64,000 nucleotides of DNA from Desulfobacteraceae bacterium UBA2156. Lineage in GTDB: Bacteria; Desulfobacterota; Desulfobacteria; Desulfobacterales; UBA2156. Position 1 is the stretch's first letter. Every line of letters starts with the position of its first letter. This document shows, piece after piece, positions 38,362-61,075 of the stretch. Location: the NCBI GenBank assembly GCA_002328165.1, contig DCWS01000012.1, forward strand, positions 8,225 to 72,224, in the 5' to 3' direction. The position numbers and the translations under genes are program-made. Below the pieces are notes generated by a model that was given only the letters and a program-made list of their open reading frames with translations, was not told the DNA's origin and ran no database searches.

Positions 38362-39493
38362 ATGAGTCTATGTGTCAAAAATGATGTTTACTGGGCAGGT
38401 AAAATCGATTGGGAGCTTAGAAAATTCAATGGTGACGAGTATTCCACCCATCGGGGATCGACCTACAATCCATACTTAATTAAAGAGGAAAAAGTGGCCC
38501 TGATCGATACTGTTCGGGCGCCTTTTTCGAAGGAATTTATAACCAATCTTGTCAAGAAAATCGACCTTAGGAAAATTGACTATGTGATAGCCAACCATGC
38601 AGAGATCGATCACAGAGGCGCGCTTCCAGAATTAATGCTATATATTCCCGACACGCCAATATATAGTACGAAAAACGGCATCAATTCATTGAGAGGACAT
38701 TATCATCAGGATTGGAATTTTAATGTTGTTAAAACCGGCAATCGCCTGAGCTTGGGGCCAAAAGAACTGCTTTTCATTGAAGCCCCGATGTTCCATTGGC
38801 CAGACAGCATGTTTTGCTGTTTGACTGAAGATAATATGCTCTTCAGCAATGATGGGTTCGGGCAGCACTATGCTTCCGAATATATGTTCAATGATCTTGT
38901 TGATCAATCGGAGTTGTTCAATGAGTGTATGAAATATTATGCGAATATACTAACCCCCTTCAGTCCCATGTTTATTAAAAAGGAAAAAGAAGTCCTCGGC
39001 TTTAATCGCCCCTTGGATATCATCTGCACCGGTCACGGGGTAATATGGCGGGATAACCCCCGGGCAGATCGTTGAACAGTACCTGGAATAGGCTGGTAAT
39101 TATCAAGAAAACCAAATTACCATTATTTATGACACCATGTGGAACAGCACTCGACTGATGGCCGAAAATATTGCCGAGGGAATACAAAACAGCGATTCAG
39201 AGGTCAGCCTAAAGCTATTTAATTTGTCGAAAACAGATAAGAACGATGTTATCGCTGAAGTCTTCAAATCCAAGGCGATTCTAGTCGGGTCCCCAACTAT
39301 CAACAGAGGAATCTTGGTTCCGGTTGTTATGAGTGGAGTGGAGAATCGGTCAAGATTATCAGTGCGTTATTATAAGGAATGCGGATTTGATGTTGGCGGT
39401 GAAGGTTTGCGAGTAATGTGGAACCCTGATAGTGAAAGTATGGCAAAATGTTTTGAATATGGAAGACAATTTTCTTTAAATGTTTCTGTTTAG
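38362..39493 (+). pseudogene. Flavodiiron protein (NorV/FprA-type) pseudogene
   Basis: Colinear with flavorubredoxin-type FDPs ('HAEIDH', 'HWPDS', 'SNDGFGQHY', '[10 protein letters not shown]', 'ITIIYDTMWNSTRLMA'). There are three lesions: a +1 frameshift in a C5 run (39057-39061), an in-frame TAG at 39089-39091, and about 20 codons missing from the flavodoxin domain. Confidence 0.8.
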
Positions 39494-39508
39494 AAGAAGG
39501 GTAGATCA

Positions 39509-40060
39509 ATGAACGATCAGGGGGCCAACCGCTCATTTTCACTAATTATTTATTTTGTTGCCACGCTTTGGGCGGTGGAGGCGGTTAATTTTGTAACCGG
39601 TCACGAGTTTATCAGGTGGGGCATACTCCCAAGGACCGTAAAAGGCCTTGTGGGCATACCCCTTAGTCCTTTCATTCATACCGGTATAATGCATCTTATT
39701 TTGAATACGGGTCCCATCGCCATCCTTGGAGGCCTCATCTGTTGGCGAGGCAAATGGATATTCCTGGAAAAAACATTCTTCATTATTTTGGTCGGTGGAC
39801 TGGGGCTATGGATAATCGGAAGATCATCCTATCATGTAGGGGCAAGTGGTTTAATGTTTGGATATTTTGGATACTTGGTTTCGAGGGGAATCCTTGAAAA
39901 GAGCTTCAGTTCGCTCATCGTTTCTTTAATTACTGTTTTTGCCTATGGTGGTTTAATATGGGGCCTGCTGCCCACTTACTCCTGGATTTCATGGGAGGGC
40001 CATCTTTGTGGATTCGTAGCTGGTATTGTTGCCGCACGGTTTGAACGATCCCGAACCTAA
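39509..40060 (+). CDS. Rhomboid family intramembrane serine protease
   Basis: 183 aa with 6 TM segments, 'HVGASGLMFGYFGY' (GxSG) and 'WEGHLCGFVAG' (catalytic His). Confidence 0.7.
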   Translation: MNDQGANRSFSLIIYFVATLWAVEAVNFVTGHEFIRWGILPRTVKGLVGIPLSPFIHTGIMHLILNTGPIAILGGLICWRGKWIFLEKTFFIILVGGLGLWIIGRSSYHVGASGLMFGYFGYLVSRGILEKSFSSLIVSLITVFAYGGLIWGLLPTYSWISWEGHLCGFVAGIVAARFERSRT

Positions 40061-40095
40061 CCTTTTAGACAAAAATCCGATCAAGGAGAATCAAG

Positions 40096-40338
40096 ATGGC
40101 TTCCATTAAGATGATTGATGAAAAAGAAGCAACAGGCAAAGTTAACAATATCTATGACCAATTAAAAGAATCGCTTGGAATCGATTCTGACCCAAATATG
40201 TATAATGGAAATCGCCCACGAACTTGCCGCAGTCTCTTGTCTGAAAACTCAGTTGTAACTATCCCTTCATATTTTCTAAAATGCAATGACCAAGATTCAA
40301 TTTTTCATTTTTCAAATTTAAGATACAATTTGACCTGA
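40096..40338 (+). pseudogene. Frameshifted, truncated N-terminal fragment of a carboxymuconolactone-decarboxylase-family (AhpD-like) gene
   Basis: 'IDEKEATGKVNNIYDQLKESLGIDSDPNMY' fits the family N-terminus. Similarity then continues in another frame ('MEIAHELAAVS') and is lost. Confidence 0.4.
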
Positions 40339-40591
40339 CAACACGCTGAGTTACGATACGGAATGGATATGTCAGGTTTTCAGGAGGATGAAAAAATTAG
40401 GTATGTTGGAGATATCTTGATTAACTTGAGCATAACCTGCGCGAAAGGCAAGAGAACTGAATGTCGATAAACCACGAAACTCTGCGAATGCCCTGAACTC
40501 TGAAATCGTACAATCGCTTTCGCGTCAGGTTGATGCATTGTTAAAAGCTATTGTATTGATCCATTGCTTGAACGGCATTAGAAATTATAGC

Positions 40592-41428
40592 CTACATTAG
40601 TCTTCCTGCTTCGCCAGTTGTGTTAAGCTTTGGATAATAACAGGCGATACTCATTCCAAAAAAAGAACCTGTACACAATAGCTGAAATAAGAAGTCTTGA
40701 GTTTGCTCAAAAGTCAAGCCATTTGAAGTTGGGATGAGAACCGGCACAAGACTCGGGTCAATGACGTCTACGTCGAAATGCAGCCACAAAGGCAGTTCGG
40801 AAGTTACCAGGTGACTCAATCCTTCTTTGGCTGATTGTGTGATGCCGATTTGGACCATCTGTTCTTTGGTGTAGACCTGTAGATTTGATTCAGCGATGAG
40901 ATCTGGCTCGCGCAAACCATAAACTATTATATTTTCGTCAGATATTAATGGGCATTTTTCAAACAGCGCGGTGATTTCTTCAGATCCACGACCTGTTAAA
41001 AATTCGAGTTCGCAATCAGCAGTCTCACCTGTTGGCGATGTTTCTTTGCTGTGAAAATCTGCAGGGCCGTCAAAAAATATAAGACCGACACTAATGTCCC
41101 TGGCCGCGAAAGCGTCAGAAATACCGATGAGGATTGCGCAGTTACCGCCGAGCACAATTGAGAACTCGTTTGGGCCCAGAGTTTCATTGAGTTTTGCTGC
41201 AAGCCGACGGGCAGTCTCTTGTAATGCGCTTAGATTCAAAATGCATGTCTGTTTGTCTCGCTAGCCTTCTGGTTTCGGAATTGCAATATCGCCATAATCC
41301 GTAACGGAGTGTCCCTTTGATTTCAACAAAGTAGTCAGCCCGGTATTGCGAAGAACTTTTGCCGGGTTCTCTTCTTCCGGGGTTGTACCGTCACTATTAA
41401 ACGGTACGCCAAGTAAGCTAATCTTCAT
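40592..41428 (-). pseudogene. Arginase/ureohydrolase-family gene with an in-frame TAG and degenerate metal ligands
   Basis: Translation from ATG 41428 gives 'MKISLLGVPFNSDGTT...AIPKPEG*RDKQTCILNLSALQ...'. The TAG is at 41261-41263. 'GGNCA' replaces GGDHS, 'FDGPADF' replaces DAHxD, and 'HFDVDVIDP' is retained. Confidence 0.6.
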
Positions 41429-41527
41429 TGCAGCTACTTTATTGTATCACTTGCACTGCGCTCGTAGCTTCTAACAAGTGATTATGGGGTTACAGATTGT
41501 AATTATGGAGCGTTATCTGATACTATG

Positions 41528-41797
41528 CTATTTGACCGCATCCTTCAATGCCTTCCCGGAAACGAACTTCGGCACCATTCTCGCTTCAATATCGATCTCC
41601 TCTCCAGTCTGTGGATTCCTGCCCTTTCTGGCTTCCCTTTTGCTCACCTTAAAGCTGCCGAACCCTGAAATTTGCACTGCTTCTTTGTTCCTCAGAGCTT
41701 CCGTAATATTTGATAAAACACAATCCACAGCTGCCTGAGCTTCTTTTTTGGTCGAAACTACCTTGGCTACCTCATTAATCAAATCGCCTTTGTTCAT
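41528..41797 (-). CDS. hup: DNA-binding protein HU
   Basis: 89 aa: '[12 protein letters not shown]...[28 protein letters not shown]'. Strong RBS AAGGAGGA. Confidence 0.9.
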
Positions 41798-41955
41798 GTT
41801 TTTCCTCCTTTCTTTGCAATATTATAGTATATTACAGAGACTATATCGAGTCCCTTTTTAAAGATTTACTATGCCCATGCCCAATTTTAAAGCCGTTGTC
41901 AGATGTTATTTATATACTACTGATGATCACTACGGTTCTTATGTCCGCGTGTCGC

Positions 41956-42264
41956 TCACGAAAAGCGTCGCCCTCCGCCACGCCTTGGTCCTCCAAGTCT
42001 CGCACCACCTCGACGGCCTTCAGAGCGAGGCCGGGCTTCATTGACATTAAGGTTTCAGCCTTTCAAATCCTTCCCATTAAAGCCTCCGATTGCAGACTGT
42101 GCTTCAGATTTAGCGGGCATCTCCACAAATCCAAACCCTCTTGATCTGCCAGTGTAATCGTCTTTTATAACCTTGACGGTATCAATCTCTCCAAAGATCT
42201 CAAAAGCTTTTTTAAAATCCTCTTCGGTAACCTCATACGATAAATTCCCCATGTAAATATTCAT
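41956..42264 (-). pseudogene. RRM-type RNA-binding protein gene interrupted by an in-frame TGA
   Basis: RNP2 'IYMGNL' and RNP1 'RGFGFVEM' are present. ORF 42055..42264 stops after 'NGKDLKG'. The same frame continues 'NLNVNEARPRSEGRRGGARLGGPRRGGGRRFS*' to 41956. Confidence 0.6.
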
Positions 42265-42568
42265 TCTGAACTCTTTCTAATAAAGATAATTTTAAAGGTT
42301 CAGTTTTTTGCCATTTAAGATCGTCATAGAATAATAGTTTCCTTTTTAAGATCGAGGCAAGAAAAAACCTAAAGTTGTGTACTATAACCGGTTGAATCCC
42401 AATCTATAGTAAGGATGGATATCAAACAGCAATCATACTGCGGCAACCGACGATTTGGATTCAGATACCGGATACCGGTCGTATTGTCAAGAAGGCATTT
42501 TCCTGTAAACAGGCTGAAAGGTACGCTCCAATATTTGTAACCATCGAAACCGAAGCAGGCTTGCCACA

Positions 42569-42940
42569 TCATTTAATCTTTAGGTAGGCCTTTCGATAAA
42601 CCCATAAATATAAGGCGGCATTAATAACAATTACCAAGCAGGCCAAAATGATTTGAAATCTTCTTGTTAATTTATCGGGATAAATAATTGGCATCAAATA
42701 ATGCTCAATAAAGCTTTGATTATACATCTTCTGCCCTCCTTTTGCCCTAAGCCAATTTTCTATCGGTGTAAGGGGACATATCTAGCCTTTGATCTCTAAA
42801 ATTATCGCCCAAACAATTGCAGGCAAATGGATGATCATCCATTTTTTGTTTTTTAGCAGAAAAAATCCACCAATTACAACAAATATAATGAAGATTAAAT
42901 GTATAATTAAGACTAAATCAGCAGATATTCTGTAAACCAT
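42569..42940 (-). pseudogene. DUF2784 membrane protein gene interrupted by an in-frame TAG
   Basis: My own translation gives 'MVYRISADLVLIIHLIFIIFVVIGG...LEIKG*ICPLTPIENWLRAKGGQKMYNQSFIEHYLMPIIYP...'. The TAG at 42782-42784 sits where the family has 'GWxCPLT'. Confidence 0.55.
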
Positions 42941-43014
42941 TATTATGAAGATTGCCGTTCAACCAACTGTATTGCAAAGGAATATAAGCGAATGGACGAG
43001 AAGGCGTGCAAAAA

Positions 43015-44205
43015 TCAGTTTTTGCCCTTTTCCGTTAAAACATTAACCTGCTTATGAACGATTATACCCCGCTTCTCAAGCTCGGCGAACATTTCTTCAG
43101 GACTGAAAGCAAGTTCCAGAGCTATCACACCGCTACCCTTCACTCGTCCTTTGCTGGTCATCTGCGCCCCTATGCCCATTGGTACACCTACACACCGGGT
43201 ATACGCACGCAGTTCTTCCCATCCTTCCACTGAACCGTCCGATTTCGGATGAGTATGAGTCAGGATATATTGAACAGACCTTTTCTATTTTATTCCAGTT
43301 ACTTCCACATGGAGCGCATAACCGTATAGATCGGTTTTCTGATCTTCTTCAGATTGAATAAGATAGCTGAAAATGACATCGAGGACGCCCACCTCACTAT
43401 CCTCGCTTTTTACTTTGTCGTTACGCAGGAATCCCCAGTCATAGAGTCCCTTTATCAGCCACATGTTTTTTGGGGGCCATGTCCCGCAAACTTCTATCAA
43501 CCGGACATCCTTGTCCGCCGAAGATTCTCCGGGGGTCAGGGTCTCCGCATGGGGTATGATATACTGGGGAAGGGTGCCAAAAGGCTCCGGTAATTCGGTG
43601 TTTCGAGGCCTGGCAAATGGCGGGACTTGAACGAGTTTTCCGTCCTCATAAACTAGACAGGTCTCCAGATTTGGATCATACTCAATACGGGTTGTCTCTG
43701 CGATTGAGGACGAAAAGGCGATGGGTCTAAACGCACCGTGACCGATACGTATCGTATCAACGGTATCCAGCCTGTCGGCAGCGTACTTTGCCATCAGGTT
43801 AGTAACACCCGGCGTCATCCCGACACTCGGTACGAAGGTCTTCCCTGTTTCTTTGAACTCTTTATCAAAATCCCATTCCAAGCTACACCCGTTCAGATTG
43901 ATCCCGTGAACTCCGGATTCGAAAATCGGAGCTATCGTGTGATCGTTCATGGATATGGTTGTACCGTCCAGGACGATATCGTATTGTTTCATCAGATTGA
44001 GGGTCTTTTCCCTGTCATATACATCGACCTTCATGAAATAAACACGGTGATCATCAAGCCAGGCAACCACTTCAAGACCTGTCCCCTCACTTACATCAGC
44101 AACGGTAATCTTATTGTAATCAGAACACTGTAGTATGTCATAAACCGATTCACGGCAGATTTTACCTGCACCTCCCAGGCACAATGCCTTCATGTTGCCA
44201 TTCAT
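43015..44205 (-). pseudogene. Saccharopine dehydrogenase-family oxidoreductase gene interrupted by an in-frame TAG
   Basis: ORFs 43285..44205 and 43015..43230 are in the same frame. The read-through is '...HVEVTGIK*KRSVQYILTHTHPKSDGSVEGWEEL...'. The TAG is at 43285-43287. N-terminal Rossmann 'ALCLGGAGKICR'. Confidence 0.65.
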
Positions 44206-44359
44206 TCCTTTATCAACCGATGTCTTAATTTTGCAATCACCCGATTTGCTCCATCCTCTTGGTGGAATGTATATACATTAAATGCCGATGTAGGTTGTGT
44301 AATAGTGTCGTAAAGGGGGGGGTGGGCGGAGAACATTCATACAATTTCTTCCTATTCAT

Positions 44360-45895
44360 TCATTTGTACTGCCCCCCCCGATCCAGATTGCGGTACTGAA
44401 TAGCCTCGGAGATATGGTCCACTTTGATATCGGGCTCTTTTTCAAGGTCGGCTATGGTGCGGGCAATTTTCAAGATGCGATTATAGGCTCGGGCCGAGAG
44501 CCCCAGTTTGTCGGTGGCAGATTCCAAAAGGTTGATTGAGGCATCACCAATGTGGCAATGTTTTTTGATATGGCGGCTGCTCATTTTGGCATTACAATAA
44601 ATCTTTGTTCTTGAAAATCTAGCAGACTGAATCTCTCTGGCCATTAACACGCGCGTTCTTATCTCTACCGACGATTCCGTTTTAATTTCTCCCTTCAGAT
44701 CTCTGAAGGGAACCGCCGGTACCTCCACATGGATGTCGATTCGATCCAGCAGTGGACCCGATATTTTTGATCGATACCTATGGATTTGTGAATAGGTGCA
44801 TCTGCACTCATGCTTTGGATCAGAAAGATATCCGCAGGGACATGGATTCATGGCAGCGATCAGCATAAAATTTGAAGGATAGGTCAGGGTTGATGCTGCC
44901 CTCGAAATGGTGACATGCTGATCTTCCAAAGGTTGGCGAAGCACCTCCAGGACATGTTTTTTATATTCGGGGAGTTCGTCCAAAAAAAGGACGCCGTTGT
45001 GGGCCAGGCTGACCTCGCCGGGTCTTGGAATATGGCCCCCGCCGATTAAACCGGCGTCTGAAATGGTATGATGCGGGGCCCTGAAAGTTCTTCTGGTGAT
45101 CAGCGACCGGTCGCTTGACAGCATCCCAATCACACTGAATATTTTTGTGATCTCGATGGCTTCATCAAATGTTAACGGCGGAAGTATGGAAGGGAGTCGT
45201 CGTGCCAACATGGTCTTCCCAGAACCCGGTGGACCGATCATGATCAAGTTGTGCCCACCGGCAGCGGCAATTTCTAAGGCCCGCTTTGCATGCTCTTGCC
45301 CCATGACCTCTGAAAAGTCCGCCTCGGATGTGTCGTCGAACTCAGAAATTGTCGAAATATCTGCTTTTTCCGGCTCTATATGGATAAAACCACGAAAAAA
45401 TTCGACGACTTGTGACAAGGTTTTCACAGGATGGACCGAAATTCCATCTACGACAGATGCTTCCCGTCTATTGCCATATGGGACTACTATCCCCTGATAA
45501 CCGGCTTTTTTTGCGGCAAGGGCCATGGGAAGTGAGCCGTTGACCGGTTTAATTCGGCCATCCAATGAAAGCTCACCCAGAATCAGGTATTTGGAAATGA
45601 TTTCTTGTGGTATGGTTCCGGTTGCAGCCAATATTCCCAAAGCGATCGGCAGGTCAAAACCGGTTCCTTCTTTTTTAATATTGGCAGGGGCCAAATTAAC
45701 AGTGATTCGGTCATCGGGAAAGGTAAAACCTGAATTGCTTATGGCTGTTTTCACCCGCTCTTTACTCTCTTTCACGGTAGCCTCTGGAAGACCGACCGTG
45801 GTAAAAGCAGGCAGTCCCGGGGTGATATCCACCTCGACCTCAATGGTAAACGCATCAATGCCGATAACCGCGCTGCTTAATATCTTTGCTATCAA
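44360..45895 (-). CDS. comM: YifB/ComM family Mg-chelatase-like ATPase
   Basis: 511 aa with a Lon-protease-like N-domain, Walker A 'GPPGSGKT', and '[11 protein letters not shown]'. Confidence 0.9.
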
Positions 45896-46138
45896 AGCGT
45901 TTCCTTTTTTTATTTCAATTTAAAGCAATCATTTTATTCCGGACAACCGCATTATCATCTCTGTTCCCTTCGATTTTACAAAGCCCGAGTTAAAAAAACA
46001 ACCTGTTTCAGACAAGAGTTGTATTATCTGCAATTCTGTGTTAACGAAAATATCGGCAAAATCATGATTTGAGAAAAATCTCACTGGATACAAATTTAAA
46101 TGCGCCATTTATCTTTTTAAAGTTCACCTTTTACCGGT

Positions 46139-47023
46139 ATGTATTATAATCAAAGAACAGTTGCAAAGCCTGTATTTTGCTCCGGTGTCGGTGTTCACTC
46201 CGGCAAAAAGGTAAATTTGACCATTAAACCGGCGCCTCTCAACCATGGCATCAAATTCAAAAGAACAGACCTGCCGAATAGTGCCTGCATATCGGCTCGT
46301 TTTAATATGGTGGTGGACACCAGCCTCGCCACTGTCATTGGGTATGACGGATTTATCGTCTCAACAATAGAACATCTCATGGCCAGCTTTTCAGGCCTTT
46401 CAATCGATAATGCCCTGGTTGAGATTGATGCCTATGAGGTGCCGATAATGGACGGTAGCGCCGGTCCTTTTACTTCAGCAATTTTAAAAGCCGGGATAAC
46501 TGAGCAAATTGGGCCAAAGTATTTTTTTGTGGTAAAAAAACCGGTTGAAATAAAGGAAGGTGATAAATCTGTCAGCATGTACCCCTCTTCAACTTTTAAA
46601 ATCAGCTATACCATCTCCTTTGATCATCCCTTAATTAAATATCAGTCCTATACAATAAATGTGTCCGACAAAGTGTTTGAAAAAGACATATGCAGTGCCA
46701 GAACATTTGGCTTTTTAAATGAAATAAAATACCTAAGATCCTATGGTTTCGCTAAGGGAGGATCCCTCGATAATGCTGTCGTCATCGATAAGGAGGCAAT
46801 TATAAATAGTGGTGGTCTGCGCTATCCGAACGAGTTTGTGCGCCATAAAATCCTTGACTGCATCGGTGACTTTTCACTCCTCGGTCTGCCGATTATGGGC
46901 CATGTCATCTTGAACAAATCCGGCCATTCTTTCAACCATGCCTTCCTTAGAGAGTTCATTAACCAAAAGGAATCATGGGAGACCCGCGCAGTTCAGGATA
47001 TGGATGACCTCTCCCGTACTTAA
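46139..47023 (+). CDS. lpxC: UDP-3-O-acyl-N-acetylglucosamine deacetylase
   Basis: 'GVGVHSGKKV', 'TIEHLMASF', 'EVPIMDGSAGPF' and 'FVRHKILDCIGD'. Confidence 0.9.
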   Translation: MYYNQRTVAKPVFCSGVGVHSGKKVNLTIKPAPLNHGIKFKRTDLPNSACISARFNMVVDTSLATVIGYDGFIVSTIEHLMASFSGLSIDNALVEIDAYEVPIMDGSAGPFTSAILKAGITEQIGPKYFFVVKKPVEIKEGDKSVSMYPSSTFKISYTISFDHPLIKYQSYTINVSDKVFEKDICSARTFGFLNEIKYLRSYGFAKGGSLDNAVVIDKEAIINSGGLRYPNEFVRHKILDCIGDFSLLGLPIMGHVILNKSGHSFNHAFLREFINQKESWETRAVQDMDDLSRT

Positions 47024-47032
47024 TCAAAATAG

Positions 47033-47070
47033 CTTGCCATTTGAAAAGACATTCGGTATGGTATGGCAAG
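47033..47070 (+). terminator. Hairpin downstream of lpxC (weak terminator candidate)
   Basis: An 8-bp stem CTTGCCAT (47033-47040) / ATGGCAAG (47063-47070) with a 22-nt loop. T-rich tracts follow about 25 nt later. The geometry is atypical. Confidence 0.2.
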
Positions 47071-47150
47071 AGAGAGCGCTCACCGGTTTTTAGGTTTTTT
47101 CTAAAATAACCAGTCCCACAGCTAACTGTTATAAACACATTCAAATATAA

Positions 47151-47720
47151 ATGGCCTCCATATCACGCCAAAAAATAGGTGCAATTTTCATTGGACTCTT
47201 TTTTTTGTTTCAGAATTTGGTTTTCGCCCAGGAAGCAAAGCTTACAAACATAATTGTTACAAATACACGTGATGATCTCCTTCTTTACCTTAATGTTGAG
47301 GGAGCATTCAGAGAAAAAATGAAAGATGCGATTTTAAGCGGAGTTCCCACCACTTTTTCATTTTTTATTACCCTCTATCTGAAGCGCAATTTTTGGATCG
47401 ATGAGAAGATCGCAGATATCACCATCACCCATACCATAAAATATAGCAATATTAAGAAGGAATATAGTGTCAAAAGATCTTGGGAGAATGGAGAGGCCAA
47501 AATTATCCAATCGTTCAGGGAGGCACAGAAATTGATGACCGAAATTGCCAGCTTAAAAATTCTTCCGTTATACAAGCTGGAAAAGGGCGTGCCGTATCAA
47601 ATTAGGGCAAAGGCCAAACTTAGTAAACTGACACTTCCTCTCTACCTGCATTATGTCCTGTTCTTTGTTTCTCTTTGGGATTTTGAAACCGATTGGTATA
47701 CAACCGATTTCATCTACTGA
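47151..47720 (+). CDS. DUF4390-like secreted protein
   Basis: Signal peptide, then 'ILSGVPTTFSFFITLYLKRNFWIDEKIADITITHTIKYSNIKKEYSV', which fits my recollection of DUF4390. Its position upstream of an NtrY-like kinase is typical. Confidence 0.5.
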   Translation: MASISRQKIGAIFIGLFFLFQNLVFAQEAKLTNIIVTNTRDDLLLYLNVEGAFREKMKDAILSGVPTTFSFFITLYLKRNFWIDEKIADITITHTIKYSNIKKEYSVKRSWENGEAKIIQSFREAQKLMTEIASLKILPLYKLEKGVPYQIRAKAKLSKLTLPLYLHYVLFFVSLWDFETDWYTTDFIY

Positions 47721-47792
47721 TCTTAATCGATGGACAGCTGAAATTGGAAAAAGCAAACCATACTTCAGCCCTCGACTTCCCGACATTAACCG

Positions 47793-50027
47793 ATGAAAGC
47801 TAACAGACACAAAAAAACCCCATCGTCTCTTTCGCAAAAGGAGCGAAGGAAACGGAAACGCGAAATCGTCCTTATTGCGATCATTGTCGTGGTCGTGGGC
47901 CTTATCACTTTTGCCGAAATCAAGATTATCAGTTTTGGATCTGGCTTTCCCGTTTCAAATACAACGTTGATGTTTATTCTGATCAACATTAACTTGCTGT
48001 TACTACTTTTATTGATTTTTCTTGTTTTGAGAAACCTTGTAAAGCTCCTCTATGACCGGAAACGAAAAGTGATGGGAGCCAGGCTCCGTACGAGACTCGT
48101 TATTGCTTTCATTGCACTCACTCTTTTGCCAACGAGCGTGCTTTTTTTCTTTTCCATTAACTTCATTACCACCAGTATCGAGTTTTGGTTCAATGTTCCC
48201 GTAGAACAGGCTCTCGAAAACTCTCTACAAGTGGGAAGGAGTTTATATAACCATGTTAAGGATAATAATAGCTTTTTTCTTAAAAGAATCGCATACCAGG
48301 TGAATGCAAAAAAACTGCTAGACCCAAAAAAAAGCAAGGCCCTTTCCCGCTACATTCAAGTCGCCCAGCGAGCGTTTAACCTCGATGCAGTAGAAATTTA
48401 TTCTATCAACTCAAAACGGCTTACACTTGCCCTCGCCTCTGATTTGGAAAACGAATATTTAAGGGTTGTTTCCGCTGACAATCTTCAAAGAGAAAAAGGA
48501 TCGGACGGCGCCATCAGCGTTACCGAAGCGATCCTCACCGGAGAATTGATAAGAACCATCGGCACTGTTCCCTTTGGCGCCCAAAAAAAAGACATCGATG
48601 CTTTTGTGGTGTTGACCAATCTGGTCCCACCGGATCTCTTAAGCAACATGGCATCCATTTCAAAAGGATATGAGGAATATCAACAGATCAAGCTTCTAAA
48701 AAAACCAATTAAGATCACCTATTACATCACGCTCTCCATTGTGGCCTTGCTGGTGATATTTTGCGCCATTTGGTTTGGCTTTCGTCAGGCAAAATCGATC
48801 ACCATACCGATTATGGAGATGGCTGATGGTACACGAAGAGTTGCTGAGGGAGATCTGGGGTTTAGCATTGGTTCGACGGCTGATGACGAAATCGGGATCC
48901 TCGTTGATTCATTTAACAAAATGACAAACGATCTGCAAGTCGGGAGAGAGCAGCTGGAGCTATCTGCCCGCATGTTACAACGCCAAAATATCGAGATCGA
49001 AGAGAAACGGCGATACACGGAATTTGTCCTAAAAAATGTTTCCGCTGGTGTTATTACGCTTGACGCAGACGGCCTTATCACCTCAATCAATACATCCGCC
49101 GAGAAGATGCTCAATCTAACACCCAAGGAGATCTTAAATAAAAGCTATCAAAATCTTCTTAATGAACAGCATTTAAACCTTGCAAAGGAAATAATGGAAA
49201 ATCTTATGAGTTCCCGGCGAGATACGGTTGAGCTCCCTTTCAGATTGAGCATAGATGGAAGATCCCGAAGTTTTTTAGCACACATCACCGCCATCAGCGA
49301 CGATGCCGGGAAGCATATGGGTATCGTCATGGTATTCGACGATCTGACCGAAATAGAAAAGGCCCAGCGGATGGCGGCTTGGCGGGAGGTTGCACGCAGG
49401 ATTGCACATGAAGTGAAAAACCCATTAACCCCCATAGCGCTCTCGGCTCAACGGTTGCGGCGAAAATATTCCGACCAGCTGAGTGACGAGGTATTTGATG
49501 AATGCACCAAGACGATAATTGATCATGTTGATTTAATCCGGAACCTGGTAAATGAATTTTCATCCTTCGCCCGCTTTCCCACAGCAAGCCCTCAGCCCTG
49601 TAATTTGCTTCCCATCATCGAAGAGACGGTCGCACTCTATCAAGAGGGCTATAATAATATTCATTTTGAAATCACCACGCCAGATGACTTTCCCCGTATG
49701 AACCTTGACCGTCAGCAGATAAAGCAAGCGATGATCAATCTGATCGAAAATGCCATCGCAGCCCTAAAAGAACGAGGCCGTATTTCCATCTCATTAACCG
49801 ATGATCCCATTTTAAAACTGATCCGGATAGAAATTGCAGATAACGGACCCGGTATTCCCGATGAGAATAAGACCCGTCTTTTTGAACCCAATTTTTCAAC
49901 TAAAAAGTCAGGCATGGGATTAGGGCTTACAATAGTGAATTCGATTGTGGATGATCACGGTGGTCGGATCCGCGTTCAGGACAACCAGCCCCGGGGGGCT
50001 AAATTTGTCGTCGAACTACCAACTTGA
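47793..50027 (+). CDS. NtrY-like sensor histidine kinase (TM-HAMP-PAS-HisKA-HATPase)
   Basis: 744 aa with an H-box 'RIAHEVKNPLTPIALSAQRLRRK', N-box 'INLIENA', 'DNGPGI' and 'GMGLGLTIV'. Confidence 0.85.
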   Translation: MKANRHKKTPSSLSQKERRKRKREIVLIAIIVVVVGLITFAEIKIISFGSGFPVSNTTLMFILININLLLLLLLIFLVLRNLVKLLYDRKRKVMGARLRTRLVIAFIALTLLPTSVLFFFSINFITTSIEFWFNVPVEQALENSLQVGRSLYNHVKDNNSFFLKRIAYQVNAKKLLDPKKSKALSRYIQVAQRAFNLDAVEIYSINSKRLTLALASDLENEYLRVVSADNLQREKGSDGAISVTEAILTGELIRTIGTVPFGAQKKDIDAFVVLTNLVPPDLLSNMASISKGYEEYQQIKLLKKPIKITYYITLSIVALLVIFCAIWFGFRQAKSITIPIMEMADGTRRVAEGDLGFSIGSTADDEIGILVDSFNKMTNDLQVGREQLELSARMLQRQNIEIEEKRRYTEFVLKNVSAGVITLDADGLITSINTSAEKMLNLTPKEILNKSYQNLLNEQHLNLAKEIMENLMSSRRDTVELPFRLSIDGRSRSFLAHITAISDDAGKHMGIVMVFDDLTEIEKAQRMAAWREVARRIAHEVKNPLTPIALSAQRLRRKYSDQLSDEVFDECTKTIIDHVDLIRNLVNEFSSFARFPTASPQPCNLLPIIEETVALYQEGYNNIHFEITTPDDFPRMNLDRQQIKQAMINLIENAIAALKERGRISISLTDDPILKLIRIEIADNGPGIPDENKTRLFEPNFSTKKSGMGLGLTIVNSIVDDHGGRIRVQDNQPRGAKFVVELPT

Positions 50028-50274
50028 CAACTTTGATAAATCCGTAAAAGCAGGTTTGAGAATCATATGGCGCAATTTTAAACCGAAACAGCGATCGCAT
50101 TTTCCGTAGCTTGTCGAAGCGCAGCGCAGATCCCGATATCCTTGGCTGCGGGATTCTTCAAGAGATGAATTTTAAATTGCAGATTCGTGAGAATTGTGTT
50201 TTAACCTGCGGTCATTCCGGTTGCAACAGAACCGGGGAGATAATTCTTTATAACTGGCAATTTATATTTGGCAT

Positions 50275-51624
50275 ATGTTTCCATCTATTTTAATCGTCGA
50301 TGACGAACCTTCTATACTTAAATCTTTAAGCGGCCTTCTCTCTGATGAAGGATTCGAAGTTTCAACAGCTTCAAATGGTTATGAAGCAATTCAGCTCGTT
50401 AGTACCGAATCCCCGGATCTTATTCTACTTGATATTTGGATGCCAGGATTAGATGGTATCGAAACCTTGACCGAAATTAAAAAAGAGAATCCCCACATAC
50501 AGATTATTATCATCACAGGGCATGGAACAATAGAAACTGCAGTGAACGCCACAAAGCTCGGTGCGTTCGACTTTATCGAAAAACCGCTCTCAATCGACAA
50601 GGTTATTGTCGCGATCAACAATGCCCTCAATTTCAGGCGGCTTGAAGAAGAGAATAAATATTTACGAAAAAAAACCATGGAAAAGCACTCAATTAACGGA
50701 ACCAGCCCAGCCACTCTTGAGTTAAAAAAGCAGATCGCCACTGCAGCACCAAGTGATAAATCGATTTTCATCACCGGGGAGAATGGTACAGGAAAAGAAC
50801 TGGTTGCAAGATCCATTCATCTTCTAAGCCCGCGTGTCAATCATCCTCTCATTGATGCAAATTGTGCTGCAATTCCTGATAAATTTATCGAAAGCGAACT
50901 GTTCGGTCATGAAAAAGGGGCACTTGCGGCGGCAACCCCAAAAAAGATCGGTAAATTTGAGCTGGCTACCAATGGAACTCTTTTTTTTGATGAAATAAGT
51001 GACATGAGTTTAAGGACCCAAGCTATGCTTCTTCGGGTCTTACAGGAGCAGCAATTCCAGAGAATTGGCGGCGGGAGAGTACTGAATGTGAATGTAAGGG
51101 TGATAGCTGCCAGTAACAAAGATATTGAAACAGAAATTGAAAAAGGCCGTTTTAGAAAAGAGCTTTATTATCGGTTGAATGTGATACCGATTGAAGTTCC
51201 CCCCTTAAGACATCGTCCTGATGATATACCTCTATTGGTCGAAATCTTTTTTGACGAACTTTCAAAGGAAAATCAGCGTCAAAAAAAAAGAATGAACCAC
51301 GACGCGTTGGAATTACTGTTTAACTACTCCTGGCCCGGGAATGTCAGGGAGCTTAAAAATCTTACGGAACGATTGGCCATCATGATCCAAAGTGATGCCA
51401 TTGATGCTTCAGATATCCCGCATCCGTATAATCCGAATGCGGGTGAAGGGGAACAGCCATCTGAATCGAATCTGTTTTTTATTGATCGGCTCGAGGATGC
51501 CAAAAAAGCTTTTGAAATGGCATTTATCAAAAACAAGCTTTCCAAAAACAAAAACAATCTCGCCAAAACGGCCGAAGCAATCGATATCAAACAGAGTTAT
51601 CTAGATGAAATCCTCAACCGTTGA
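50275..51624 (+). CDS. NtrX-like response regulator (REC-AAA+-Fis HTH) with degenerate GAFTGA loop
   Basis: REC 'LILLDIWMPGLDG' and Walker A 'GENGTGKE'. 'ESELFGHEKGALAAA' (50917-50934) replaces GAFTGA. C-terminal HTH 'NNLAKTAEAIDIKQSYLDEIL'. Confidence 0.85.
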   Translation: MFPSILIVDDEPSILKSLSGLLSDEGFEVSTASNGYEAIQLVSTESPDLILLDIWMPGLDGIETLTEIKKENPHIQIIIITGHGTIETAVNATKLGAFDFIEKPLSIDKVIVAINNALNFRRLEEENKYLRKKTMEKHSINGTSPATLELKKQIATAAPSDKSIFITGENGTGKELVARSIHLLSPRVNHPLIDANCAAIPDKFIESELFGHEKGALAAATPKKIGKFELATNGTLFFDEISDMSLRTQAMLLRVLQEQQFQRIGGGRVLNVNVRVIAASNKDIETEIEKGRFRKELYYRLNVIPIEVPPLRHRPDDIPLLVEIFFDELSKENQRQKKRMNHDALELLFNYSWPGNVRELKNLTERLAIMIQSDAIDASDIPHPYNPNAGEGEQPSESNLFFIDRLEDAKKAFEMAFIKNKLSKNKNNLAKTAEAIDIKQSYLDEILNR

Positions 51625-51699
51625 ATCCCGTCTTCTTTCCGCCTGTCACCGTTTCGTACGTTTAATCCTGCATCCTAAGTTATAACATTTTATCGTGGC

Positions 51700-52260
51700 A
51701 TGAAATTGAGAATCATTGGTGGAAATTTTAAAGGCAAGAAACTGCAACCGGTTCGAGGCAGACGAACTCGGCCGACAGCCGATCGAATTCGGGAGTCGAT
51801 ATTTGATATTATAGGAGATCGCGTTCGTGAAGCTATGGTTCTGGATTTATTTGCCGGTACGGGGGCCCTCGGAATCGAGGCGTTGAGCAGGGGCGCTGAT
51901 GGTGCTGTATTCATTGACAACGACGAGAACTCCAATTTCATGATTCGAAAGAACATCCACTCATGTGCCTTCGATGAAAAGACAAAGGTTATTAAATGGG
52001 ATATTGTTAAGAATTTAAATTGTATTTGCACCATTAAACCGAAGTTTGATCTTGTCTTGATGGATCCGCCTTATAACAAAAAAAAAATAACAATGACGCT
52101 GCTCAATTTACACCAAAGCCGCTCTTTAATCAAAAGGGCCGATATCATTATTGAACACAGTGTCGCGGAACCGATTTCTGAAAACCATTCGATATTCAAG
52201 ATGATTGATCAGAAAAGATATGGAAAAACCCTTGTTTCAATTTTAAATTTCATGATATAA
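51700..52260 (+). CDS. rsmD: 16S rRNA (guanine966-N2)-methyltransferase RsmD
   Basis: 'RPTADRIRESIFDII', 'DLFAGTGALGIEALSRGA' and 'LMDPPYN'. Confidence 0.85.
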   Translation: MKLRIIGGNFKGKKLQPVRGRRTRPTADRIRESIFDIIGDRVREAMVLDLFAGTGALGIEALSRGADGAVFIDNDENSNFMIRKNIHSCAFDEKTKVIKWDIVKNLNCICTIKPKFDLVLMDPPYNKKKITMTLLNLHQSRSLIKRADIIIEHSVAEPISENHSIFKMIDQKRYGKTLVSILNFMI

Positions 52261-52329
52261 ATTGTGTTCCAACACTCATTCTGATTTACTGGGTAAAACC
52301 GCCTTAATTTATTGACGGAGAGGTCTCAA

Positions 52330-52833
52330 ATGGGAACAATCGCCATATATCCAGGGTCATTTGATCCGGTCACAAATGGTCATCTGGATATGATTGAAAG
52401 AGGATTGAAACTTTTTGATAGAATTATTGTGGCAATACTGATCAATCTCGACAAGGATTCTCTATTTTCTTTAGAAGAACGGACAGAGATGCTTGAAATA
52501 AGCTTGAAAAGATTTTCAAACATTGAAGTGGACACCTTTGACGGTCTTCTCGTCGATTATGCAGCTAAGCGGAATGTCCACGCGATACTTCGGGGATTGC
52601 GTGCGTTATCGGATTTTGAATACGAATTTCAGATGGCGATGATGAACCGTCGGTTAAACAAAGAAATTCAATCGGTCTTCCTCATGACTGGGCTCCGATG
52701 GATATTTACCAGTTCGTCTATAATTAAAGAAGCGGCGAAGTTCGGCGGCAATATCTCCGATATGGTTCCTCAATTGGTCTATGAGAAGCTTAAAGAAAAA
52801 TTCAATCGCCCCACCAAAATGGGTTCAGATTAG
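52330..52833 (+). CDS. coaD: Phosphopantetheine adenylyltransferase
   Basis: Start set at MGTIAIYPGSFDPVTNGHLD (GGAGAGG upstream). 'ILRGLRALSDFEYE' is present. Confidence 0.9.
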   Translation: MGTIAIYPGSFDPVTNGHLDMIERGLKLFDRIIVAILINLDKDSLFSLEERTEMLEISLKRFSNIEVDTFDGLLVDYAAKRNVHAILRGLRALSDFEYEFQMAMMNRRLNKEIQSVFLMTGLRWIFTSSSIIKEAAKFGGNISDMVPQLVYEKLKEKFNRPTKMGSD

Positions 52834-52932
52834 GATCTTCCCAACGGTCAAAGCAGAAACCCGGTTGACTGAAATATGAACCCTCAACCGCAAGATCTTA
52901 TTCCCTCACCGAATCACAACGGAGAAATAAAC

Positions 52933-55101
52933 ATGTCCCTATCCCTTTCCAAGAATGCAAAGATCGTTATTGAAAAACGGTATCTTAGAAAAGATAAAAA
53001 TGGAAAAACAACGGAGACGCCAGGGGGCCTCTTTGAAAGGGTGGCTACAAATGTTGCCGCAGCAGATGCAAAGTTTGAATCCTCTTGCGATGTTGATAGA
53101 ACGACGAAAAAATTCTTAAAACTTCTCAGCAATAGGTTGTTTTTACCCAACTCGCCCACCCTGATGAATGCAGGACAGCGGCTCGGGCAACTCGCCGCCT
53201 GTTTTGTACTGCCCATCGAAGATTCGATGGAAAGCATCTTTGAGACCCTAAAGCATACGGCCGCGATTCATAAAAGCGGCGGCGGGACCGGATTTTCCTT
53301 TTCAAAGATTCGTCCCCATAACGATGTCGTGTTGTCAACAGCAGGTATATCAAGCGGCCCAATTTCATTTATGTCTGTTTTTGACACGGCCACAGAGACG
53401 GTCAAGCAGGGCGGAACCCGAAGAGGGGCGAATATGGGATTGTTACGGGTTGATCACCCTGACATAGAAGCGTTTATTGAGTCAAAAAATGATCTCGAAA
53501 AATTAAACAATTTTAATATATCAGTCGCCTTGACCCGGGAATTTTTGACTGCTTTGGAAAAAGGATCCCAATATGATCTGATCAATCCCCGTACAACCAA
53601 CACCAAGGGATCGGTTTCCGCCAGAAAAATTTTCGATAAAATCGTATTTTCCGCCTGGCAGAGCGGGGAACCTGGAGTCGTTTTTATCGATCGCATCAAT
53701 GAAAAAAATCCGACCCCCCACCTAGGCAGTATCGAGGCCACAAATCCCTGTGGGGAACAGCCGCTGTTGCCATATGAATCCTGCACATTGGGTTCAATCG
53801 ATCTGTCAAAAATGGTCGACAAAAACAGTGTTAATCTGGGCAGGCTTAAAAAAACGGTTCGTGACGCCGTTCACTTCCTTGATAATGTTATCGAAATCAA
53901 CAACTATCCCCTGCGACGCATTGAAGAAATGAGCAAAGGGACAAGAAAAATCGGTCTTGGTGTAATGGGTTTTGCCGATATGTTGATAAAAATGGAAATA
54001 CTTTATGATTCTGAAAAAGCGGTTGTCCAGGCCGAGAAAATCATGTCCTTGATTGCGCATGAATCAAGACAAGCGTCTGCAAACCTCGCTAAAAAACGAG
54101 GGAACTTTCCATTTTATAAGGGCAGCATATTTGATAATGAATCCACACCTTATATGAGAAATGCCACTACCACCACAATCGCACCAACCGGTACGATCAG
54201 CATCATTGCAGACACATCAAGTGGTATCGAACCGATTTTTGCCGTGGTCCATCAAAGACATGTCCTTGACGGCCAGACGCTTTACGAAATCCATCCACTG
54301 TTTGTTCAACTGGCTAAAAAGGCGGGCTTCTATAATAAGACCCTTGCCGGTGAAATTGCAAAAACAGGTTCTGTCCAATCGATCGATATGGTTCCGGACC
54401 ATATCAAAAAATGCTTCAGAACTTCCCATGACATCGCACCTGAATGGCATGTCCGGATTCAATCTGCGTTTCAAAAATATACAGATAATGCGGTTTCAAA
54501 GACAGTTAACTTTCCAGCGGATGCCACCCCGGAACAGGTTGAAAAGGTGTATCGACTCGCCTATAAAACCGGATGTAAAGGCGTTACCATTTACAGGTAT
54601 GGAAGTCGAGGTAAACAAGTTCTGAATCTCGACATAGATAAACAAGAGAGTACAAAAATTTTACCTAGACCCAGACCGATCCGGACCCGGGGCATTACCG
54701 AACGAATGAAAACCGGATGCGGTAAACTGTATGTTACCATAAATTCTGACGATATGGGGATGTGTGAGGTTTTTGCTCAGATGGGAAAGACCGGCGGATG
54801 CGCCTCCTCTCAAATAGAAGCGGCGGGTCGTCTTATTTCGCTCGCTTTACGGTCAGGTGTAAAGGTGGACGCCATCGCAAAACAGCTCATCGGAATTAGA
54901 TGTCCTTCACCTTCATGGCAAAACGGCAGCATGGTTCTCTCCTGCCCGGATGCCATTGCACAGGTGCTAAAAAACCTAACTGATTCAGATATTGTCGAAA
55001 ACGAGGTGATGATGGGCGTATGCCCTGACTGCAGCGGGATTATGGCCCACGAGGAAGGGTGTCTGGTCTGCCATTTGTGCGGGTTCTCAAAATGCAGTTA
55101 G
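52933..55101 (+). CDS. nrdJ: Adenosylcobalamin-dependent (class II) ribonucleotide reductase
   Basis: Start set at MSLSLSKNAKIVIEKRYL (GGAGA upstream). 'LPNSPTLMNAG', 'ATNPCGEQPL' and a C-terminal Zn ribbon 'CPDCSG...CLVCHLCGFSKC'. Confidence 0.85.
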   Translation: MSLSLSKNAKIVIEKRYLRKDKNGKTTETPGGLFERVATNVAAADAKFESSCDVDRTTKKFLKLLSNRLFLPNSPTLMNAGQRLGQLAACFVLPIEDSMESIFETLKHTAAIHKSGGGTGFSFSKIRPHNDVVLSTAGISSGPISFMSVFDTATETVKQGGTRRGANMGLLRVDHPDIEAFIESKNDLEKLNNFNISVALTREFLTALEKGSQYDLINPRTTNTKGSVSARKIFDKIVFSAWQSGEPGVVFIDRINEKNPTPHLGSIEATNPCGEQPLLPYESCTLGSIDLSKMVDKNSVNLGRLKKTVRDAVHFLDNVIEINNYPLRRIEEMSKGTRKIGLGVMGFADMLIKMEILYDSEKAVVQAEKIMSLIAHESRQASANLAKKRGNFPFYKGSIFDNESTPYMRNATTTTIAPTGTISIIADTSSGIEPIFAVVHQRHVLDGQTLYEIHPLFVQLAKKAGFYNKTLAGEIAKTGSVQSIDMVPDHIKKCFRTSHDIAPEWHVRIQSAFQKYTDNAVSKTVNFPADATPEQVEKVYRLAYKTGCKGVTIYRYGSRGKQVLNLDIDKQESTKILPRPRPIRTRGITERMKTGCGKLYVTINSDDMGMCEVFAQMGKTGGCASSQIEAAGRLISLALRSGVKVDAIAKQLIGIRCPSPSWQNGSMVLSCPDAIAQVLKNLTDSDIVENEVMMGVCPDCSGIMAHEEGCLVCHLCGFSKCS

Positions 55102-55106
55102 GATCT

Positions 55107-55691
55107 CTAAAAAATATACCGGAGGACCACAAATCCGGCTATAAGAAAAACTGTGAATGCAACAGCGAGTAAATTGAAATAGTTGTCAATAAAAGACTGA
55201 ATCCTTGGGCCAAAACAGTAGATGAGCCCTCCCACCAGAAAAAATCGTGCTGAACGGGAAACAACAGATGCAACGATAAACACCCAGAAATTGATATTAA
55301 ATGCACCTGCCGAAATTGTGAACACCTTATAGGGTATCGGTGTAAACCCGGCAATACCGATCGCCCATGCATCGTATGCTCGATAGAGCTCCCTTATATA
55401 ATCAAATTTTTGATCTAGACCATAAAAGGCAATTATCCGCTCACCGATCCCGGACATAAACTGCCATCCGATGATATAGCCTATGCAGCCCCCGATCACA
55501 GACCCAACTGAACAAATCAGTGCAAATTTAAACGATTTTTTAGGTGCGCCGATCGAGAGGACGATGAGCAAAACATCAGGAGGTATCGGAAAAAAAGAAG
55601 ACTCGCTCAATGCGAGTAGAAATAATGCCAACGCCCCATATGGCGTTTCAGCCCAGTGGAGCACCCAATCGTAAAGTCGACGCAACATCAA
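55107..55691 (-). CDS. DedA/YqaA family membrane protein
   Basis: 194 aa. 'SFFPIPPDVLLIVL' and a polytopic profile are typical of YqaA-type DedA proteins. Confidence 0.7.
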   Translation of the reverse strand: MMLRRLYDWVLHWAETPYGALALFLLALSESSFFPIPPDVLLIVLSIGAPKKSFKFALICSVGSVIGGCIGYIIGWQFMSGIGERIIAFYGLDQKFDYIRELYRAYDAWAIGIAGFTPIPYKVFTISAGAFNINFWVFIVASVVSRSARFFLVGGLIYCFGPRIQSFIDNYFNLLAVAFTVFLIAGFVVLRYIF

Positions 55692-56348
55692 CTATATTCT
55701 CCATCCACATTCGCCCACCAGTTTGACAAACCTGCACCCCCCCAGATTCGTTTCGCGGACACCGCCTTCATCCTTATACAGTTTTATCAGCGATTGTGAA
55801 TACTGATCACCGACAGGTATTACCAAACGTCCGTGAACAGCCAGCTGATTTACCAGAACTTCCGGGATGTCAGGGGCACCCGCGGTAACGATAATGGCAT
55901 CGAAAGGACTTTCATCGCGCCATCCTGCCGTGCCATCAGAATATTTGGTTACAATATTGTAATAGTAAAGTTTATCAAAAAGCTTTCGTGTTTTTAAATA
56001 TAGTGAGTGTATTCGTTCAATGGTATAAACACGATATGCTAATTTTGCAAGAATTGCCGCCTGATATCCGGATCCTGTCCCAATTTCGAGCACACGATCC
56101 TCTTCTGAAAGTTGCAGTGCTTCAGTCATTTCAGCCACAATATAGGGTTGAGATATGGTCTGCTGGTCTCCGATGGGGAGCGGGAAATCACCATATGCCT
56201 GATCCATCAGGGCCTCGTCGACAAAAAGATGCCTTGGCACGGTTCGCATTGCCGAGAGCACCCCTGGATCGGTGATGCCCCGTGCTTCAATTTGTTTCTG
56301 AACCATCCTTTCACGAAAGTGTTCGTACTTTATGGATTCTTTTTTCAT
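55692..56348 (-). CDS. pcm: Protein-L-isoaspartate O-methyltransferase
   Basis: '[13 protein letters not shown]', '[16 protein letters not shown]' and '[12 protein letters not shown]'. The start is uncertain (56348 or 56387) and there is no clear RBS. Confidence 0.8.
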
Positions 56349-56547
56349 AATTGAAATTTCACTATCAAAACAACGAAGTGGGGTCAAGAATATAGGAATT
56401 AGTCTGGTGATTCCTTAAAAAAGAAATACAAAAAGTCCTTGATTTTTAAGCAAAATGTTACATAATCTGGAGCAAATTCAATTCAAGTTCTCCGCTCAGC
56501 TCAATCGGTTGATTTACGAGCTGTTTTGATTAAAAAGCGTTTCCCAC

Positions 56548-57546
56548 ATGAACAGTATAAAACATCTTCTACTATCTGTCTTTGTCGCTTTGTTCATTGT
56601 TGTTCTCGGAACAACCGGATATATGGTAATCGAAGGATAGAACGTTCTGGATTCCCTATATATGACCGTCATTACACTATCAACCGTTGGATACGATGAG
56701 GTAGAAGAAACAAGTAACATTGGACGCATATTCACTATTTGCCTGATTTTTCTGGGGGTTGGCTTTTTTTTATATATTACAGGCGCCATCGTCCAATTCA
56801 TGGTGGAAGGGCGAATCGGAGCCGTATTGGGGAGGAGAAAATTGGAAAGAAAAATCGACCAGTTGAAAAACCATTATATCATCTGTGGATATGGCCGTAT
56901 TGGAAGGACTTGATATAAAAACATTCAAAGAAAACCGCTCAATCTGGTGGTTATTGAGAAAAACCCGGAATTGATTCCCGCAATGGACGAGGACGGCATT
57001 CTTTATGTGTCCGGAGATGCTTCGGATGCGGGCAACCTGATCAAAACCGGGATAGAACACGCAAACGGCCTCATTGCCGCGTTAGGCTCTGATGCCGACA
57101 ATGTCTTTCTGGCTTTGACCGCCAGGCAACTCAACCCGGATCTGTTTATTTTGGCAAGGGCGAGCCAGAAGGAATCCATCTCGAAATTGACGGCTGCAGG
57201 TGCGACTCAAGTGGTATCACCCTATGACATAGGCGCCGCCAGTATGGCTCAACGGATATTGAGGCCTGCAGTGACAAGTTTTTTTGATCTTGCTTTGACA
57301 CACGAACGTAAAGATATTCATATGGAAGAGATGCCTGTAAGTGCTTAATCCAAACTGACAAATGTCATGTTGAGGGATTCCGGTATCAGACAACAACTGA
57401 ACTTGATCATCATTGCCATAAAGGCTTCGGATGGCGGAATGCTGTTCAACCCATCATTTGAGACCACCATCCAGGCGGGGGATACGGTTATCGCTGTGGG
57501 AGAATTAGAAAACCTTGAAAAATTAGAGGCTATCTTGAATCCATAA
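56548..57546 (+). pseudogene. MthK/Kch-like 2-TM potassium channel with RCK (TrkA-N/TrkA-C) domains, inactivated by three in-frame stops
   Basis: A single frame reads 'MNSIKH...YMVIEG*NVLDSLYMTVITLSTVGYDEVEE...ICGYGRIGRT*YKNI...VVIEKNPE...MPVSA*SKLTNVMLRDSGIRQ...ILNP*'. The stops are TAG 56638-56640, TGA 56911-56913 and TAA 57346-57348. The selectivity filter reads GYDE instead of GYGD. Confidence 0.75.
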
Positions 57547-57547
57547 A

Positions 57548-58135: not shown

Positions 58136-58296
58136 CGGTGTCTCCTGCCACAATAATCAAAAATAATTTGCGGTGGTTATACTAGACAAAATAGACCACC
58201 AAAGTCAACTTTCAAAGATCATTGACTAAAAACCGGATGCATGTTAATTTTGATAGTTTAAATAAAACTGATTTTCCAAAAAATATAGGTATTGTT

Positions 58297-61070: not shown

Positions 61071-61075
61071 ATCCC

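Follow-up and report, generated by a model that had tools for sequence, protein, structure and literature searches.

Several accessory genes in a 64,000-nucleotide stretch of DNA from an uncultured marine Desulfobacterales bacterium, which is known only from metagenomes, are interrupted by in-frame stop codons, and in three of them a TAG codon occupies the position of a tryptophan. The stretch, in the following referred to as the window (contig DCWS01000012.1 of Desulfobacteraceae bacterium UBA2156, positions 8,225 to 72,224 of the forward strand), has a GC content of approximately 45%, and its closest named relative is Desulfonema magnum, with a YifB identity of 79%. Based on the comparison with closely related strains and species, the interrupted genes are very probably ordinary pseudogenes, produced by spontaneous substitutions while purifying selection was weak. 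An earlier note on this DNA had interpreted the stops as recent gene inactivation driven by GC-to-AT transitions. The stops proved to be genuine, recent and inactivating point mutations, six of the nine having arisen on the branch leading to the window genotype (the window branch) after approximately 0.6% divergence.

In-frame stop codons in the window

An all-frame scan of the window revealed nine solid in-frame stops. They are distributed over seven recognisable genes, with three in the K+ channel gene, and replace the previous count of 11 stops in nine frames; one further TGA is located in a remnant. The features are as follows.

38362-39493, plus strand: flavodiiron (NorV/FprA-like) pseudogene; TAG at 39089-39091 (TGG>TAG)
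40592-41428, minus strand: arginase-family pseudogene; in-frame TAG at 41261-41263
41980-42264, minus strand: RRM RNA-binding-protein pseudogene; TGA at 42055-42057 (CGA>TGA, Arg to stop)
42569-42940, minus strand: DUF2784 gene; TAG at 42782-42784 (TGG>TAG), its sole lesion
43015-44193, minus strand: saccharopine-dehydrogenase-like pseudogene; TAG at 43285-43287 (GAG>TAG, Glu to stop, a G>T transversion)
56548-57546, plus strand: MthK-type K+ channel pseudogene (Ion_trans_2, TrkA_N and TrkA_C); three stops, TAG at 56638-56640 (TGG>TAG), TGA at 56911-56913 (TTA>TGA) and TAA at 57346-57348 (TCA>TAA)
62341-63096, minus strand: PilM remnant without its C-terminus; TAG at 62692-62694 (CAG>TAG, Gln to stop)
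61076-62339, no single strand: collision of two truncated genes
40096-40590, plus strand: remnant of an unrecognisable gene that may have been CMD/AhpD-like; in-frame TGA at 40336-40338

The remnant at 40.1-40.6 kb had no match in Pfam and is degenerate in the sister species as well. It was therefore dropped as a countable pseudogene, and all stop and gene counts given here exclude it.

Distribution of the genotype and its relatives

The same DNA was detected by exact-protein look-ups in many independent assemblies (ENA, JGI, Logan and NCBI) with an identity of 99.95-100%, including those of Tara Oceans samples and the metagenome-assembled genome GCA_002687435.1. Every in-frame stop recurs in these assemblies, which differ in group, assembler and sample. 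The alternative kept by the earlier note, namely a low-frequency variant or a consensus artefact, as well as any other sequencing or assembly artefact, thus has next to no probability, the more so as the differences among the sister strains are phylogenetically coherent.

One genotype with a divergence of at most 0.05% (L103-L109) occurs in dozens of metagenomes, one of its proteins in up to 83 collection blocks, which points to a nearly clonal population of worldwide distribution. Past window position 63459 the otherwise identical genotype of L003 carries an IS3-type transposase pair (HTH_Tnp_1 and rve), which is an insertion sequence (IS) polymorphism.

Relatives were gathered by protein searches with read-through translations and were assigned to three tiers: sister strains of the same species with approximately 1-1.5% nucleotide divergence (L096-L099, L102, L106, L110-L112), a sister species group with approximately 6% divergence (L091, L100/L101, L114/L115) and an outgroup with approximately 14% divergence (L093). 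The tree derived from pairwise distances was ((window),(L096,L102,L106)),(L091,L100). A synteny search of species-representative genomes using YifB as query yielded a single locus with an orthologue of the channel (60% identity), while the other genes were found in none of them. A search of a plasmid collection gave no match, and an assignment to the heterotrophic diazotroph genomes from Tara was rejected, as HBD-02 has 53% GC compared to approximately 45% in the window.

Ancestral codons of the stops

The ancestral codon could be assigned by polarisation for eight of the nine stops (three times TGG and once each CAG, CGA, GAG, TTA and TCA), each being one substitution away from the stop in close orthologues. 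Three TGG>TAG changes, CAG>TAG, TTA>TGA and TCA>TAA belong to the window branch. The TGA of the RRM gene and the TAG codons of the saccharopine-dehydrogenase-like and the arginase-like gene are older and common to all strains of the species. Since every sister strain and sister species compared has TGG at all three Trp sites, each of these TAG codons goes back to a transition (TGG>TAG) that took place on the window branch.

The conserved tryptophans postulated by the earlier note were recovered to different extents. In the flavodiiron gene the assignment is borne out by TGG in the sister strains and in the intact gene of the sister species, and also by the Trp of E. coli NorV. The DUF2784 gene has TGG in six other strains and species, but Trp is not conserved family-wide: although the commonest residue at this site, it is present in only 44 of the 127 family representatives that were retrieved with the C-terminal fragment as query. 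Similarly, the channel site has TGG in L102, L106 and L091 and Trp in P0001, P0002, P0004 and P0007, whereas MthK has Glu. The proposed origin of the RRM TGA from an Arg codon agrees with Arg in all 12 of the nearest homologues and with CGA in the syntenic RRM-HU orthologue L159.

Further lesions in the interrupted genes

Relaxed constraint or additional lesions were observed in the flavodiiron, K+ channel, saccharopine-dehydrogenase-like, arginase-like and RRM genes. The flavodiiron gene, which is intact in the sister species (L114/L115, 397 aa), carries four lesions in the window, the indels being polarised against the relatives. Two of them, an insertion of one base within the C-run at 39057-39061 and a 64-bp deletion at 39318/39319, are species-wide, while the TAG and an additional T at 39373 are confined to the window lineage. 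The gene was frameshifted before its TAG arose, and the sister strains show further 1-bp deletions of their own. As the additional T offsets the 64-bp deletion by chance, the C-terminal region mimics an in-frame deletion. For annotation this is a warning that two frameshifts may cancel each other and pass for a deletion in frame.

The neighbouring remnant contains 1-bp deletions at approximately 40270 (species-wide) and at 40396 (window only). The earlier figure of about three indel lesions was thus too low, given two frameshifting insertions and the 64-bp deletion in the flavodiiron gene alone, two deletions in the remnant and at least three large truncations.

The sister species has an intact K+ channel gene. 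Within the present species the gene was knocked out three times separately, by the three stops of the window type, all of them specific to the window lineage, in L106 by CAA>TAA (codon 127) and in L102 by the loss of one base at 57019. The selectivity filter of this channel clade reads TVGY(D/N/G)E instead of TVGYGD (56680-56700; P0001, P0002, P0004, P0007), in intact orthologues too. An intact, 90%-identical orthologue likewise has GYDE, while others have GYNE or GYGE. The change of GYGD to GYDE, which the earlier note had listed among the lesions, can hence be struck from them: the GYDE filter is ancestral. On the window branch, substitutions at 56909, 56912 and 56915 (T>C, T>G and G>A) hit three neighbouring codons, each at its second position, and one of the changes created the TGA. 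A template-switch origin of this cluster was considered and rejected, since neither a direct nor an inverted template is present nearby.

In the arginase-like gene the motifs providing the Mn ligands have decayed (GGDHS>GGNCA, DAHAD>DGPAD and HG>DC), and according to an alignment with PDB structures its TAG falls in a variable loop. The RRM gene is altered in near-invariant columns besides its TGA. The saccharopine-dehydrogenase-like gene, intact in the sister species (L100/L101), underwent nine nonsynonymous and four synonymous changes along the window branch.

PilM belongs to the remnant of a pil operon, and its TAG was detected in the window lineage only. PilM is directly followed by a fragment of an AMIN-domain lipoprotein gene (minus strand, 61644-62339), which overlaps a truncated plus-strand gene at 61076-61837 (253 aa, comprising the first approximately 230 codons of the full gene). 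The corresponding gene of the sister species L091 encodes 595 aa, and the synteny of the window with L091 stops at 61758. The collision at 61076-62339 is a large deletion or rearrangement lesion and part of the same decay process.

Selection and the proposed course of gene decay

On the window branch, the genes that remained intact have accumulated 29 nonsynonymous and 36 synonymous substitutions. The pseudogene class, with 13 nonsynonymous and four nonsense changes compared to eight synonymous ones, evolves near-neutrally. Relative to the sister species (L091/L100; 42569-61750) the dN/dS values range from 0.11 to 0.69 with a median of approximately 0.26, which applies even to RNR, SerRS and YifB and suggests that purifying selection is weak in the whole clade. 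Selection of this strength is compatible with disabling mutations building up and becoming fixed in a genotype that is nearly clonal.

The accessory genes affected (flavodiiron, arginase-like, RRM, saccharopine-dehydrogenase-like, K+ channel, pil genes and DUF2784) would be in decay in this species. Their in-frame stops would be ordinary spontaneous base substitutions that became fixed by drift or hitch-hiking, and most of the six stops on the window branch, among them two of the three at Trp codons, very probably landed in genes whose function had been lost before or was no longer required. TAG in place of Trp would recur because TGG is a single transition away from TAG and because C/G>T/A transitions are more frequent than any other kind of mutation. 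The fixed state of the mutations is evident from their identity in many independent assemblies, and we infer a loss of function of these genes and a neutral fixation.

Mutation spectrum

Over 19.2 kb, 110 substitutions could be polarised on the window branch, of which C/G>T/A transitions account for 52%, A/T>G/C transitions for 19% and A/T>C/G transversions for 15%. Per site, GC>AT changes are approximately twice as frequent as AT>GC changes. A universal GC-to-AT mutational bias in bacteria was reportedly described by Hershberg and Petrov in 2010 and by Hildebrand et al. in 2010. The window resembles it in this twofold excess and in its nonsense mutations being mostly C/G>T/A, as dictated by the code. 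It differs in the A/T>C/G transversions, which make up 15-22% of the substitutions on every intraspecific branch (42575-61750), an unusually high share for bacteria.

When the window-branch rates were applied to the genes of the window in a neutral codon model, nonsense mutations accounted for 3.5% of the coding substitutions, and 62% of these were of the C>T type. The earlier note was right in that most stops point in the GC-to-AT direction, but the observed five of the eight polarised stops match the expectation for the genetic code combined with the ordinary, AT-biased spectrum of this lineage. The three remaining ones (TTA>TGA, TCA>TAA and GAG>TAG) are transversions of three different kinds. 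According to the model 40% of new stops should be TAG (observed six of nine, p = 0.10), and TGG>TAG should make up 9.3% of the nonsense mutations. Hotspots of the Dcm type (CCWGG) as a source of the TGG>TAG changes were ruled out by the flanks AATGG, GCTGG and GATGG.

Nonsense and frameshift mutations

The dead genes and spacers of the strains of this species contain 178 segregating substitutions and, after removal of alignment-edge artefacts, approximately 12 indel events, eight of which cause frameshifts in dead genes. Under neutrality approximately 5.4 nonsense mutations would be expected per eight frameshifts (approximately 0.7 per frameshift), compared to eight observed within the species (p = 0.18). 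The ratio of nonsense to frameshift mutations is 6:2 on the window branch and 3:8 in the sisters (Fisher's exact test, p = 0.055). In the whole window, nine stops compare with at least five small frameshifts and three large truncations. The excess of nonsense over frameshift mutations claimed previously is therefore marginal at best, with p values of about 0.05-0.06 once the hidden frameshifts are added.

Observations at odds with ordinary decay

A number of observations weigh against ordinary pseudogenisation as a complete explanation. The DUF2784 gene shows no second lesion. It is intact in all sister strains and the sister species, the TAG being confined to the window lineage, and its loss of function can only be inferred. 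The TAG of the arginase-like gene is the one stop whose ancestral codon was not polarised; an orthologue in the sister species was sought for this purpose and not found. The six nonsense mutations on the window branch compare with two frameshifts, with a neutral nonsense share of 0.40 (p = 0.05). Furthermore, three of the six new stops are TGG>TAG, for which the nominal and post hoc p value is 0.013 (up to 0.03 if calculated as three of eight). Pooled with TGG>TGA, of which there was none, the value becomes approximately 0.05 by a hand estimate. Finally, three of the ten substitutions of the channel gene on the window branch are nonsense mutations (p = 0.004, uncorrected for the approximately 27 genes).

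Alternative explanations

The last of these observations would also be accounted for if the loss of some genes, chiefly of the K+ channel, had been favoured by selection instead of being neutral, and the three independent knock-outs of the channel within approximately 1% divergence point in the same direction. Once the gene had been knocked out, however, any further stop would be neutral, so that the triple hit is silent on selection. Losses in parallel would likewise be expected had the channel simply become dispensable in the common ancestor, and the numbers are small; we therefore regard selected loss as rather unlikely. A mutator state of the lineage, e.g. due to defects of ung, mutY or mismatch repair, or an exposure to deaminases such as an interbacterial deaminase toxin seems quite improbable, although the earlier note had named such possible causes. 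None of ung, mutY, mutM, mutS and mutL is located in the window. A mutator state or deaminase exposure could explain why the window branch is approximately 1.3 times as long as the sister lineages (83 vs 63 substitutions), the scarcity of indels on it and the cluster of three substitutions at 56909-56915. Within the 15.2 kb where both branches could be polarised, the share of GC>AT transitions is 41 of 83 (49%) on the window branch and 37 of 99 (37%) on the sister branches, but this difference is not significant (p = 0.13). The C>T changes are without a deaminase-like sequence context, the base 5' of the mutated C being distributed evenly (C 17, T 17, A 12, G 11). Three of the eight polarised stops are transversions of three different kinds, an AT bias of the size found here is reportedly usual in bacteria (Hershberg and Petrov 2010), and a mismatch-repair defect should raise the number of homopolymer frameshifts, which are scarce on the window branch. 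Taking into account the agreement of five of eight stops with the predicted 62%, the lack of a context bias and the similarity of the spectrum to that of the sisters, neither a deaminase nor a repair defect is needed.

A reading of TAG as a sense codon would concern the genetic code instead of the mutation process: the window genotype could possess an amber-suppressor tRNA, e.g. one inserting Trp, or decode TAG as pyrrolysine, so that TGG>TAG would be tolerated and not inactivating. The share of TGG>TAG among the new stops and the fact that DUF2784 carries this change only would agree with such a read-through, as would the two full-length genes of the MttB family (33118-34581 and 35523-37025), which flank a gene for a corrinoid-binding protein. 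However, TAG is the terminator of 13 of the 47 intact genes in the window. Neither in the window lineage nor in its sisters has any of these genes moved away from TAG as terminator. The in-frame TAG codons replace Trp in three cases and Glu and Gln in one case each, and none of them falls in a gene shown to be constrained; two of the TGG>TAG changes are located in genes with other disabling lesions. The channel is in addition interrupted by TGA and TAA. Neither MttB-family gene contains an in-frame TAG as found in pyrrolysine enzymes, so that both are, as far as can be told from their sequences, of the non-pyrrolysine type, and the 64-kb window contains no tRNA genes. Since TAG is a common terminator, replaces several amino acids and is accompanied by TGA and TAA in frame, it is, to judge from these 64 kb, not recoded in the window lineage, and an amber-suppressing tRNA that renders TGG>TAG tolerable appears very improbable. 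If it nevertheless existed, DUF2784 would still be made, and the excess of TGG>TAG would represent the first step of a TAG reassignment in a natural population.

Comparison with known systems

The build-up of pseudogenes under weak purifying selection is known from bottlenecked or niche-restricted bacteria such as Mycobacterium leprae, Shigella, Salmonella Typhi and Sodalis. Ordinary pseudogenisation in the window resembles these cases in accessory genes broken by nonsense mutations, frameshifts and deletions, in secondary hits in dead genes, in the parallel loss of the same gene, in elevated dN/dS values and in an IS insertion polymorphism within a nearly clonal population. In contrast to them, the present organism is uncultured and marine, without a documented host or lifestyle shift, and the comparison is based on 64 kb.

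Reassignment or suppression of stop codons has been described as TAG recoding in some phages and as pyrrolysine incorporation in methylamine-using Desulfobacterota and Firmicutes. The window shares with these the in-frame TAG at conserved sense positions of unrelated genes and the proximity of MttB-family genes. It differs in the use of TAG as a common terminator, in the three amino acids replaced, and in the in-frame TAG codons being recent, lineage-specific and located in genes carrying other lesions. Mutagenesis by deaminases (DddA-type interbacterial toxins or APOBEC-like enzymes) is similar to the present case in that C/G>T/A is the largest class of changes, but the window lacks a 5' TC or CC preference, and substitutions of the other classes are common as well.

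The stops fail as a lead to an altered genetic code or to mutagenesis; the pattern is what a spectrum with an ordinary AT bias produces in dead genes, given the structure of the code. Their value is a modest one, as a clean natural case of stepwise gene decay, in which every lesion can be dated and polarised with the help of strains that differ by 0-1% and species that differ by 6%. The spread of one nearly clonal genotype under weak purifying selection through ocean metagenomes may be of interest for the study of population bottlenecks or lifestyle shifts in marine relatives of sulfate reducers.

Other deletions and rearrangement scars

The sister strain L099 has lost 34 bp from within its DUF4390 gene, which lies upstream of the gene for the NtrY-like kinase, at the equivalent of window position 47247 (approximately). 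At 11026-11996 of the window, an N-terminal fragment of a 3-hydroxyacyl-CoA dehydrogenase gene (134 aa) abuts and overlaps half an MFS transporter gene, which is encoded by the opposite strand; this looks like another deletion or rearrangement scar.

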